Shown in pieces: positions 27,836-32,967 of a stretch of DNA of 64,000 nucleotides. The stretch is from Escherichia phage vB_EcoM_G2540. The notes beneath the pieces were generated by a model. That model made no database searches. It was not told the DNA's origin and saw only the letters and a list, made by a program, of their open reading frames with translations. Each line of letters opens with the position of its first letter. Position 1 is the first letter of the stretch. Position numbers and translations under genes: made by a program. Location of the stretch: sequence record MK327936.1; one strand, 5' to 3'.

Positions 27836-28417
27836 CTAACCGAGCTTTTTAGTTAATTCATTCCAATGTTTTCTACACAAAGAAACATAAATTTCATCAC
27901 CAATACAGATTTGATTACCTTCTTTAACTGGTGTTCCATCTTCCATTAATCGAGCTGTTATAATAGCTTTTTTACCACAATGACAAACTGCCTTTAGTTC
28001 AATAAGTTTATCTGCAATCGCCAAAAGTTCTTTAGAACCTTCAAATAATTTTCCAGCGAAATCAGTCCTTAGCCCATAAGCCATAACAGGAACATTATAT
28101 GTATCAACAATTCGACTTAATTGATGCACCTGTTCAGTTTTTAAAAACTGAGCTTCATCTACAAATACACAATGAATATCTTTTTGTGCTTCAGCCCATT
28201 TATAGAACTCAAAAATATCCATATCATCCGTAATAATATTCGCTTCCTGCTTAATTCCAATGCGAGAAACGACTTCACAGACAGAATCGCGAGTATCAAT
28301 AGCAGGCTTAAGAACTAATACACCCATTCCGCGTTCTTTATAATTATGTGCAGCAGTCAAAAGAGAAGCAGATTTTCCAGCATTCATTGCTGCGTAAGTA
28401 AAAATTAAACTCGCCAT
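27836..28417 (-). CDS. tk: Thymidine kinase
   Basis: 193 aa; P-loop NAGKSASLL; zinc ribbon CHCGKKA...C near C-terminus. Confidence 0.9.
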   Translation of the reverse strand: MASLIFTYAAMNAGKSASLLTAAHNYKERGMGVLVLKPAIDTRDSVCEVVSRIGIKQEANIITDDMDIFEFYKWAEAQKDIHCVFVDEAQFLKTEQVHQLSRIVDTYNVPVMAYGLRTDFAGKLFEGSKELLAIADKLIELKAVCHCGKKAIITARLMEDGTPVKEGNQICIGDEIYVSLCRKHWNELTKKLG

Positions 28418-28778: not shown

Positions 28779-28991
28779 TCATTTCGGTTTACCTTCTTTA
28801 ACGAAATCTGGATAAGGATAAAATCCCGAATAAAATCCTTCACCTTTATGATTGATGCATCCTTTATTAGAACAATAGCACCAATAATCGAAATCACAAG
28901 CCATTTCATCGTTGCATAAAGCAAAAACAACTGGCCATTTACACTTTTCACAATGGGCATTTTTAAGAATACTAGTTTGGCTCATAACCAT
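28779..28991 (-). CDS. Cys-rich small protein
   Basis: 70 aa; CEKCKW...C...CYC...C cysteine pattern. Confidence 0.35.
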   Translation of the reverse strand: MVMSQTSILKNAHCEKCKWPVVFALCNDEMACDFDYWCYCSNKGCINHKGEGFYSGFYPYPDFVKEGKPK

Positions 28992-29209
28992 GTAACCTTT
29001 AAGCAGTATTCTTCTACATGCTGTTTACGACCTTTCTTATCAATAAAGGTATATTCAACGAATGTTCCAATGTAGTCTTTATCTACATCATGCGGACTAT
29101 TAATTGGACATTTAGTACGGCAAATGCGTTCCCATTGACGAATAATTACTGCCTTATTCTTTGGGTCATATGGATGTGGATAATGTATATTCATAATAAC
29201 GGTTCCCAA
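28982..29209 (-). CDS. Hypothetical small protein
   Basis: 75-aa ORF. Confidence 0.35.
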   Translation of the reverse strand: MGTVIMNIHYPHPYDPKNKAVIIRQWERICRTKCPINSPHDVDKDYIGTFVEYTFIDKKGRKQHVEEYCLKVTWL

Positions 29210-29658
29210 TCAACAATCACAATTTCTAATTTAGAGGAATATGTATCTAAAATCCCCTCAATAATATCCCAGTTCCCTTTACCTATGCCTGCACCAATCC
29301 TAGGCATATAGATTGTAGGTTTAATCAGTTTATTTTCACCAAACTCATTTAATTCTAACATACAATTCATTAAAGCGGAATACTCAAAATTTGGCCCTGG
29401 TTGAAATTGAGTATAAAGGTTGAAGCAATACGCTTTATGAGTCCTAAAATATTTTTCATAGACTGAGTAAGAACCGAGTTTAGTTACATCACCCCATTCA
29501 GTCTGTAATTTATCAGCTTCCAAAATTTTAGGGAAAGCTTTGGTTAATTGACCCGCTACGCCTGAACCCATAGTATGAAAACAATTGCATCCATGCGCAA
29601 TATTTTTACCTTCAGCGAAAAGGGCGACAATATCGCCCTTGATATATTTTACAATCAT
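29191..29658 (-). CDS. Macro-domain (ADP-ribose binding/processing) protein
   Basis: 155 aa; GCNCFHTMGSGVAGQ resembles macro-domain nucleotide-binding loop; T4 tk.4 position. Confidence 0.6.
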   Translation of the reverse strand: MIVKYIKGDIVALFAEGKNIAHGCNCFHTMGSGVAGQLTKAFPKILEADKLQTEWGDVTKLGSYSVYEKYFRTHKAYCFNLYTQFQPGPNFEYSALMNCMLELNEFGENKLIKPTIYMPRIGAGIGKGNWDIIEGILDTYSSKLEIVIVDWEPLL

Positions 29659-29996
29659 CTAGTACTCAATCCTCGATTATAAGAATCTACCAAACGGTCA
29701 ACCATTGAATGACAAGCGGCTTTATCTTTCTCCTCCGCAACTGAACATTCTAAGGTATTCCACTTTTTAGCATATCGTTTTAACAATGTATCATTTTTAT
29801 ATCTGCTTGATTTATCTCTTTCTCCGTCTTTATATGCATATATTAATTTCTGCGCAAATTCAGCTTGGCATGCTTTATTTTTCCCGCAATAATCCGCGGC
29901 AGTACGGTTTACATACTCTCTAATTTCAGTATATGATGTATCTGCTAACGCAGAAAATGAAATTAATCCTATACATAAAACCAAAATTTTAGTCAT
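29655..29996 (-). CDS. Secreted small protein (T4 vs position)
   Basis: 113 aa; N-terminal signal peptide MTKILVLCIGLISFSALA. Confidence 0.4.
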   Translation of the reverse strand: MTKILVLCIGLISFSALADTSYTEIREYVNRTAADYCGKNKACQAEFAQKLIYAYKDGERDKSSRYKNDTLLKRYAKKWNTLECSVAEEKDKAACHSMVDRLVDSYNRGLSTR

Positions 29997-30534
29997 TTAC
30001 TATTTCCAAAAGTTTATTATTTTTAAGGTAATTAGCCTTTTCTAGGACTTCAGAAGCATATTTAGAACCTGCTTTAACATTCCATCCCGAATTATAAGAG
30101 GATATTGCTTTTCTTATATCGCCCTTATGTATATTTAACCAATAAGAAAGTTCAATGTACGCCCAGGAAGCTGAATTGGACCGTTTATTCAACATTCTTT
30201 TTATTTCTGCATCGGTCATATTATAACCAAGTTCCTTAACTCTTGCTCGCATAGTAGGCAAATAATTTTGGAACATTCCGTAGGCGTGATGCTTTGGTTT
30301 AGATTTTAAATTAACTCCGCCAGAGCTTTCTTGCCATAAAATAGCAGCCATTATATGACCTAATCCGCTCTTATGGATATTTTTGTGTGTTTTATATTTT
30401 CCATCCTTAGAAAATTGTTCCCCGAATTGATACGCGTAACGCATGTTATCGAGTTGGACATTACTGAAAGTATGCTCGGAGCTATGTGCCATCATTGAAA
30501 TGGCCAATAGACCAGCGAGTAGTGCTTTTCTCAT
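29989..30534 (-). CDS. Secreted lytic-transglycosylase-like protein
   Basis: 181 aa; signal peptide; WQESSGG and YGMFQ motifs reminiscent of SLT domains. Confidence 0.45.
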   Translation of the reverse strand: MRKALLAGLLAISMMAHSSEHTFSNVQLDNMRYAYQFGEQFSKDGKYKTHKNIHKSGLGHIMAAILWQESSGGVNLKSKPKHHAYGMFQNYLPTMRARVKELGYNMTDAEIKRMLNKRSNSASWAYIELSYWLNIHKGDIRKAISSYNSGWNVKAGSKYASEVLEKANYLKNNKLLEIVND

Positions 30535-30541
30535 GCTTACC

Positions 30542-31003
30542 TCATTGAGTTTTAATTACTGCTTTAGAAGCCTTTCCTGGTAAACGACGACTGTTGATAA
30601 TTGCCATCCTGCATTGAAGTGACGGGTTTTTGAACTTCTCATTAGGCTTACAAACCGTAAATCCAAGCCAAAGATTTCCATCTGTGATTTCTAAACGTCC
30701 AGGACGATATTCAACCCCATCAATAAAATCCTCGTCAATGTCAGGACGCGGAGGCATACTCAGGAATTCATTAACTTCTAAAACATGGTCTTTTATTTTA
30801 TGGAATAATTCAAAAACATATGTCTCATCAATCTCCCGTTGAATTGCACGATCAAGAAGATGCTGAGAATATTTTAGATGAAACGATGAGACTCCTGCTG
30901 CTTTTGATGCCTCACGAATCTCATTGTTAATTTGACGAAACTCCGACTCAAAGTGACGACGAAGCTTATTTCGACGGATAAAAACTTCTGTATTGATAGT
31001 CAT
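30542..31003 (-). CDS. regB: Endoribonuclease RegB
   Basis: 153 aa; size and position match T4 RegB; early promoter upstream. Confidence 0.8.
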   Translation of the reverse strand: MTINTEVFIRRNKLRRHFESEFRQINNEIREASKAAGVSSFHLKYSQHLLDRAIQREIDETYVFELFHKIKDHVLEVNEFLSMPPRPDIDEDFIDGVEYRPGRLEITDGNLWLGFTVCKPNEKFKNPSLQCRMAIINSRRLPGKASKAVIKTQ

Positions 31004-31030: not shown

Positions 31031-31061
31031 ATTATACCACAGTCAAGAGGAAAAGTAAACA
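31031..31061 (-). promoter_or_regulatory. T4-type early promoter upstream of regB
   Basis: GTTTACT-18-TATAAT on minus strand. Confidence 0.5.
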
Positions 31062-31062
31062 G

Positions 31063-31650
31063 TTATTCTTTAAATCTAATCAATTTATTCATAGACTTTG
31101 AAACTTCTGCACGAACCTCATGTAAGTTTTTAAGCTGTTCAAGACGCTGCTCATAGTAAGCAATTTCATCTTCTTCGAGACAGTCCTGTGAATCTTCTTT
31201 AAGATAACGTGCATAGTCCTGAAAAGCTTTACGGACTACTTCCTGGAAGTCATCAAGACTTTGAATTTTCTTAGGAGCGGCAGATACACGACGAGGTGCA
31301 GTATAATACTCATAACCAAACCCTGCACTTAATTGAGCCATTAGTATTTTTCCTCTGGTTGGAATATCGCTGATGTCAGGAACTTCAGTATCTTTTATAC
31401 TAAACCCACGTTTTAAGCATTCCGTTATAATGTCTGATTGACGCTTTCGCAAAAATTCTAACTTATCGTAAAAGAACGTAACATGACCAGAGCCTAAAAT
31501 AAACTCGGAAGATATTTTAAAATCTTTAACCCGCTTACCATTTGCCACATGTTTACGAACTATACCAAAAACACGCGGCAATTCACGATACTCAGCCATA
31601 AGATGTTGGTCGGTCAGTTCAGAAACAAGTGTTAAATTGATACGAGTCAT
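31063..31650 (-). CDS. denV: Endonuclease V (pyrimidine-dimer glycosylase) homolog with extended divergent C-terminus
   Basis: [12 protein letters not shown]...[13 protein letters not shown] matches recalled T4 EndoV for about 100 aa; then diverges and continues to 195 aa. Confidence 0.7.
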
Positions 31651-31687
31651 AATTTCCTCCAAGTAGTTGATGAATGTATAGTATCAA

Positions 31688-31708
31688 AGTCCTTGGAGGA
31701 AGTAAACA

Positions 31709-31717: not shown

Positions 31718-32511
<794 letters not shown>

Positions 32512-32967
32512 TTAAAAGAGGCTGTTCATTATTCGGTAAAGTGAAGGACCCATCACATATTGCCACTGAGTACGAGGAATAAGAGCAAAAGCATCCATCT
32601 CTGGAATCATAATACCATCTTTATTTTCAAAATAAGACTCGCAATGGCAATTTCTAAACATCTCATGCTCTACTGGAATCGTATAATAAAACAGCTGTAA
32701 GTCTTTATTACTAGAATATTTAAATACACCTAGGTCTTCTAGAAGGTCTGGATTATAATTGCTAAAACCGGTCTCTTCTAAGCATTCTCTTCGTGCTGCA
32801 TCTAGTGCGCTCAAATCAGAATTTTCTACACGGCCTTTTGGAATATCCCAGCGATGTGCCATCATTCCAGGCTTACGAGAACCAGTAACCCGTCCCATGA
32901 ATAAATCTTTATCTTCTGTCATAAAGATAATACCAGCTGATAATGTTTTCATTTTAATTTCCTGCAT
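32512..32967 (-). CDS. nudE: Nudix hydrolase
   Basis: 151 aa; Nudix box region RRECLEETG. Confidence 0.8.
   Translation of the reverse strand: MQEIKMKTLSAGIIFMTEDKDLFMGRVTGSRKPGMMAHRWDIPKGRVENSDLSALDAARRECLEETGFSNYNPDLLEDLGVFKYSSNKDLQLFYYTIPVEHEMFRNCHCESYFENKDGIMIPEMDAFALIPRTQWQYVMGPSLYRIMNSLF

Follow-up and report, generated by a model that had tools for sequence, protein, structure and literature searches.

Genes of the tk-vs interval

In the window, i.e., the 64,000-nucleotide stretch of the genome of Escherichia phage vB_EcoM_G2540 that was analysed, an ORF on the minus strand encodes a protein identical in all 155 residues to Tk.4 of phage T4 (NP_049723; tblastn against 50,697 phage records). 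The gene differs in seven nucleotides from tk.4 of T4 and in one from that of phage HP3, every one of these differences being synonymous. It is confirmed as a real gene, a chance ORF being excluded, and it is the orthologue of T4 tk.4 (adfM). In the T4 reference record, tk.4 is described as "phosphatase; Tk.4; contains A1pp phosphatase motif" and is flanked by vs and tk.3; the gene order tk ... tk.3-tk.4-vs-vs.1-regB of the window matches that of T4 (Table 1). A first-pass annotation had placed a 155-aa macrodomain ORF in the tk-vs interval, and this placement holds, with vs and tk.3 as flanking genes and tk downstream. It was right about the macrodomain but failed to recognise a named T4 gene, tk.4, that has long been annotated as A1pp/macro. 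The label "macro domain protein" is already used for tk.4 by several Tequatrovirus-like phages, and 2.2 kb around tk.4 are 99.3-99.5% identical to many phages of this kind.

Table 1. Features in and around the tk.4 region; positions are counted from the first nucleotide of the window.
Feature	Position	Strand	Basis or comment
tk	27836..28417	-	
Three small ORFs: 61 aa, DUF7438; 57 aa, no family; 70 aa, Phage_zn_bind PF23895	28427..28991	-	
tk.3 (DUF7202)	28982..29194	-	alignment to T4 and Pfam DUF7202
ATGA overlap, tk.4 stop/tk.3 start	29191..29194	-	sequence
tk.4/adfM CDS, stand-alone macrodomain protein, 155 aa, ATG start	29191..29658	-	ORF list, T4 identity
Residues 119-130, PRIGAGIGKGNW, second (phosphate-binding) glycine-rich loop	29269..29304	-	alignment
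Q84 codon	29407..29409	-	position of catalytic lysine in TARG1/DarG/PhiKZ AdfM
Y82-T83-Q84 codons	29407..29415	-	sequence
Residues 23-37, GCNCFHTMGSGVAGQ, first ADP-ribose-binding loop	29548..29592	-	motif position
N25 codon	29584..29586	-	invariant; within GCNCFHTMGSGVAGQ loop
ATGA overlap, vs stop/tk.4 start	29655..29658	-	sequence and ORF ends
vs	29655..29996	-	
vs.1, SLT domain	29989..30534	-	
regB	30542..31003	-	
Best sigma-70-like promoter match, TTTACT-17-TATAAT with TG	31031..31059	-	promoter scan, tentative
199-aa denV/vs.3 fusion ORF	31063..31662	-	
denV/vs.3 junction	~31360..31364		5-nt microhomology TGGAA
e (lysozyme)	31987..32475	-	
nudE (e.1)	32512..32967	-	

The genes regB, vs.1, vs, tk.4, and tk.3, the three small ORFs, and tk form a tightly packed, overlapping run on the minus strand. 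Both the start and the stop codon of tk.4 are engaged in ATGA overlaps, and the overlap with the stop codon of vs suggests translational coupling from vs to tk.4. The best sigma-70-like promoter match lies in front of regB-vs.1-vs-tk.4, within the sole intergenic gap there, and constitutes, tentatively, a candidate early promoter of this unit, from which tk.4 would be transcribed early together with regB, vs.1, and vs. Across the region the total of promoter-like sites was not above shuffle expectation and, because the scan is not enriched over shuffles, the assignment of this promoter to the unit goes by position only.

In place of tk.1 and tk.2 of T4, three small ORFs are situated between tk and tk.3, in a segment that shows no similarity to T4 at the megablast level and is common to HP3-like phages. 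An extra ORF between tk.3 and tk.4 was considered and rejected, as alignment to T4 identifies the stretch in question as tk.3 itself and places the additional small ORF in the tk.1/tk.2 region. On the other side of the unit, the endonuclease V gene denV, cut down to its first ~97 codons, is fused in frame to an intact vs.3. This junction is spanned by none of the 50,697 phage records, and relative to HP3 about 1.96 kb are missing, comprising vs.5-vs.8, the 3' third of denV, and all of vs.4 but its 3' end. Unless the junction is an assembly artefact, the window phage is probably denV-defective and devoid of vs.4, which is known as the anti-CBASS gene acb2. To the left of the junction the identity to HP3 amounts to 98.8%, whereas positions 31360..31708, i.e., the 5' part of denV and the sequence upstream of it, are 88% identical to HP3 and 99% identical to ECO78 and Kha5h; the drop in identity to HP3 right of the junction therefore indicates mosaicism there. 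Farther upstream, about 3 kb from tk.4, the lysozyme gene e and nudE follow in T4 order. NudE is a Nudix hydrolase reported to be active on ADP-ribose and, as Tk.4 would free ADP-ribose, a functional link between the two is conceivable.

Fold and active site of Tk.4

Sequence profiles and the predicted fold agree that Tk.4 is a true macrodomain. The Pfam Macro profile PF01661 matches residues 22-132 over profile positions 2-113 of 118 with 27.7 bits, above its gathering score of 22 bits, and PHROG 335 matches with an E-value of 1.3e-65. A sequence search of the PDB with Tk.4 retrieves BT1257, Poa1p, SCO6735, DarG macrodomains, and TARG1. With a profile of the Tk.4 family, built from 63 sequences with identities down to 34%, these matches rise to E-values of 1e-11 to 1e-17, whereas viral-type macrodomains stay at about 1e-3. 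An AlphaFold2 model based on the same 63-sequence alignment (mean pLDDT 94.7, pTM 0.90) displays the α/β macro fold, in which ADP-ribose is bound by two glycine-rich loops, and its top neighbours in Foldseek are TARG1, Poa1p, and DarG. By these sequence comparisons and this model, Tk.4 belongs to the ALC1/TARG1/DarG/Poa1p class and not to the MacroD or viral-type macrodomains. The macrodomain call of the first-pass annotation is thus borne out by profile search, by matches to solved macrodomains, and by structure prediction.

The loop quoted in that annotation, GCNCFHTMGSGVAGQ, is the first ADP-ribose-binding loop of Tk.4. It is directly preceded by H22, and all 63 family members have its residues G23, N25, G33, and A35. 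N25 aligns with a conserved Asn of DarG and of the PhiKZ macrodomain AdfM; in the latter an N23A exchange reduces activity (PMC13309987). In the second loop P119, I121, G122, and G124 are invariant among the 63 sequences. This loop, PRIGAGIGKGNW, aligns directly with PRIGCGLAGGTW of SCO6735 from Streptomyces coelicolor, and G122 and G124 of Tk.4 therefore correspond to G126 and G128 of SCO6735.

Between the two loops, Y82, T83, and Q84 of the motif NLYTQ are likewise invariant (63/63). In HMMER and MAFFT alignments Q84 falls on K84 of TARG1, K80 of DarG, and the lysine of PhiKZ AdfM, and G126 falls on D125 of TARG1. For SCO6735 it is stated that Gln85 is the equivalent of Lys84/Lys80 (PMC9411070). 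Q84 of Tk.4 corresponds to this Gln85 by transitivity and by coordinate offsets, the direct alignment of the two proteins being that of the PRIG loop only. In BT1257 the motif IGQ is paired with YTQ in the profile alignment but shifted in the single-sequence and MAFFT alignments, and this ambiguous case was set aside. From its sequence, the active site of Tk.4 seems to be of a Gln type, resembling that of SCO6735 and not that of DarG.

Homologues of Tk.4 were detected by tblastn in 2750 of the 50,697 phage records, and the hosts of these phages include Escherichia, Klebsiella, Salmonella, Pseudomonas, Vibrio, and Acinetobacter. In bacterial genomes a pattern scan confirmed at least 526 relatives among the 600 matches listed. 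H22, N25, D49, N80, Y82, and Q84 are present in 80 of 80 bacterial homologues from many phyla (33-43% identity), which had been retrieved with search patterns of which the Y82-T83-Q84 motif was no part. Among the same-strand neighbours of these 80 genes no recurrent DarT was found; NADAR occurs three times and NAMPT twice, amid housekeeping genes. This census led us to reject the idea that the bacterial homologues are DarT-linked antitoxins. A family this widespread with no recurrent DarT beside it is therefore one of "orphan" macrodomains and not a toxin-antitoxin component.

Probable role against DarTG2 and alternative functions

T4 devoid of both AdfA and AdfN is still resistant to DarTG2, and a further anti-DarTG2 factor was therefore predicted (PMC11257639). 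In a HIDEN-SEQ transposon screen on an E. coli host carrying DarTG2, tk.4 was the sole significant T4 gene, a clean tk.4 knockout sensitised T4 to DarTG2, and the gene was dispensable without DarTG2; these data stem from one preprint of November 2025, in which tk.4 was renamed adfM, for "anti-DarT factor Macrodomain" (bioRxiv 10.1101/2025.11.20.689424). Removal of ADP-ribose from DNA by Tk.4 was deduced there solely from the similarity of its predicted structure to DarG of Mycobacterium tuberculosis (bioRxiv 10.1101/2025.11.20.689424). A second phage macrodomain, gp104 of PhiKZ, has also been named AdfM; it strips ADP-ribose placed by DarT2 from DNA in vitro and rescues DarT2 toxicity, and in that paper a macrodomain Adf is said to be previously unreported (PMC13309987, Cell Rep 2026). 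The macrodomain call and the counter-defence idea for tk.4 are thus already published. The suggestion of the first-pass annotation that a phage macrodomain might be a counter-defence enzyme acting on ADP-ribosylation agrees with the T4 genetics, i.e., the single screen hit and the sensitivity of the clean deletion (bioRxiv 10.1101/2025.11.20.689424). Its variant in which the target is an NAD-derived signalling molecule finds no support, the evidence pointing to ADP-ribosylated DNA and not to soluble signals. We regard a role of Tk.4 against DarTG2 as very probable.

In a host with DarTG2, DarT2 ADP-ribosylates thymidines of phage ssDNA and thereby blocks replication. Tk.4 would hold the ADP-ribose with its two glycine-rich loops and hydrolyse the N-glycosidic bond between ribose and thymine, so that normal DNA would be restored. 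As Gln84 is invariant at the position of the catalytic lysine, the lysine chemistry of DarG and TARG1 is not available to Tk.4; catalysis would be water-mediated, with Gln84, probably fixed by Asn25, positioning the distal ribose. In SCO6735 the exchange Q85A abolishes hydrolysis of thymidine-ADP-ribosylated DNA, N27S nearly does so, and a water-mediated mechanism has been proposed (PMC9411070). By sequence and by this analogy, a hydrolase mechanism on thymidine-ADP-ribosylated DNA is likely for Tk.4, although it has no counterpart of the lysine on which the two best-studied thymidine-ADP-ribose hydrolases depend. For the overall reading, in which Tk.4 is an anti-DarTG2 macrodomain that removes ADP-ribose from phage ssDNA in a Gln-dependent way, we estimate a probability of roughly 0.8, which combines the estimates for the role and for the mechanism.

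An alternative explanation is that Tk.4 functions mainly as a stoichiometric inhibitor that binds DarT2 or shields ADP-ribosylated DNA without hydrolysing it. Such a function would be in line with the missing catalytic lysine, and there are precedents, as the catalytically dead SCO6735 Q85A inhibits DarT in vitro, more so than mutants of DarG or TARG1 (PMC9411070), and AdfA and AdfB, two other anti-DarT factors of phages, inhibit DarT directly (PMC13309987). However, with its 155 residues Tk.4 is devoid of the C-terminal DarT-binding domain of DarG, and H22, N25, and Q84 are kept without exception by bacterial homologues that have no recurrent DarT on the same strand. Such a pattern is to be expected of an enzyme and not of a partner-specific binder, and we consider inhibition as the main function improbable.

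It seems highly doubtful that DarTG2 is one target among several and that Tk.4 erases or tunes ADP-ribosylation by Alt, ModA, or ModB, or by other ADP-ribosylating or NAD-signalling defences of the host such as CmdTAC or Thoeris. T4 does possess three ADP-ribosyltransferases, namely Alt, ModA, and ModB, TARG1-class macrodomains including SCO6735 also cleave ADP-ribose from Glu/Asp of proteins and from uracil in RNA, and the spread of the Tk.4 family (2750 phage records, at least 526 bacterial relatives) exceeds what adjacency to DarT2 explains. In contrast, Alt, ModA, and ModB target arginine, and we know of no cleavage of the arginine-ADP-ribose linkage by macrodomains of the ALC1/TARG1 class. 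Also, tk.4 is dispensable without DarTG2, no data tie it to another system, and a literature search for roles of Tk.4 in connection with ADP-ribose, RNAylation, or Alt/Mod found nothing specific to tk.4.

That Tk.4 is a Poa1p-like ADP-ribose-1''-phosphate phosphatase or an O-acetyl-ADP-ribose deacetylase with an indirect DarTG2 phenotype can be largely discounted: its link to Poa1p consists in similarity of fold and sequence only, Poa1p being no closer in the profile search than DarG, TARG1, and SCO6735 (all 1e-11 to 1e-15), its sole known phenotype is DarTG2-specific, we know of no source of ADP-ribose-1''-phosphate in T4 infection, and the name "phosphatase" is a legacy label that derives from the historical domain name "A1pp" and not from an assay. 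Annotations should drop "phosphatase" in favour of "anti-DarT2 macrodomain (AdfM/Tk.4)".

With Tk.4 as a probable eraser of ADP-ribose on phage DNA, T-even phages would stack erasers and inhibitors (AdfA, AdfN, AdfM) against toxin-antitoxin defences that ADP-ribosylate DNA. A broader reading is that AdfM of T4 and AdfM of PhiKZ are independent recruitments, from two macrodomain lineages, against one and the same defence and that the lysine-less "HGCNC...NLYTQ" family consists of general erasers of base-linked ADP-ribose; we put this forward tentatively, with the odds somewhat against it. If true, erasers relying on Gln, Asn, and water, acting on thymine in DNA and possibly on uracil in RNA, would counter toxins beyond DarT2.

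Comparison with known macrodomains

Tk.4/AdfM of T4 is the same protein as Tk.4 of the window, located at the same vs/tk.3 position and with the same overlapping start and stop codons. The phage around it is T4-like but differs from T4 itself, with tk.1 and tk.2 replaced and the deletion of ~1.96 kb reaching from vs.4 into denV.

Like Tk.4, AdfM of PhiKZ (gp104) is a stand-alone macrodomain encoded by a phage; it neutralises DarTG2, and it bears the same name. In contrast to Tk.4, it is of the DarG type, with an E-value of 9e-25 to DarG of M. tuberculosis and an FPTK motif, whereas Tk.4 matches DarG at 5e-4 to 6e-3. The two phage proteins share about 20% identity (hhalign), a BLASTP alignment covering just 23 residues, and PhiKZ gp104 enters the phage nucleus by import. 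Tk.4 of T4, of the Gln type, and gp104, of the DarG type with a catalytic lysine, were each named AdfM independently, and the name now spans two unrelated macrodomain subfamilies.

In DarG itself (Thermus aquaticus, 5m31; M. tuberculosis, 5m3i) K80 follows the FPTK strand, and its counterpart in Tk.4 is Q84. The DarG antitoxin gene adjoins darT, whereas the neighbours of tk.4 are vs and tk.3/DUF7202. The NCBIfam equivalog model for DarG, NF048014, has a cut-off of 250 bits but matches Tk.4 with 30.3 bits, and only at positions 2-146 of 338; Tk.4 was therefore rejected as a DarG equivalog and, because the match comprises the macro part only, the C-terminal DarT-binding domain is absent from Tk.4. 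The solved structures closest to Tk.4 in fold and sequence are those of human TARG1/OARD1 (4j5r), yeast Poa1p (6lfq), and Bacteroides BT1257 (2afc). In TARG1/OARD1 the catalytic dyad is K84/D125, which is replaced by Q84/G126 in Tk.4, and BT1257 is an uncharacterised protein.

SCO6735 (PDB 5e3b) and Tk.4 are both stand-alone macrodomains of the ALC1 class with no adjacent darT and with Gln in place of the catalytic Lys. N25 of Tk.4 corresponds to N27 of SCO6735, the PRIGxG loop is found in both, and H22 is also present in Tk.4. Otherwise the two proteins are distant, with an E-value of 3.3e-4 in a single-sequence search and 20% identity in the Foldseek alignment, and SCO6735 is a cellular, DNA-damage-inducible protein whereas Tk.4 is a phage gene product. 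SCO6735 possesses a longer mobile loop with the DNA-binding lysines K89 and K94 that Tk.4 does not have; judging from alignment offsets, the segment from Q84 to PRIG is about four residues shorter in Tk.4, and Lys is absent from its residues 85-92 (FQPGPNFE). The probable SCO6735-like Gln active site is what is new here, and it suggests that Tk.4 should be modelled on SCO6735 and not on DarG.
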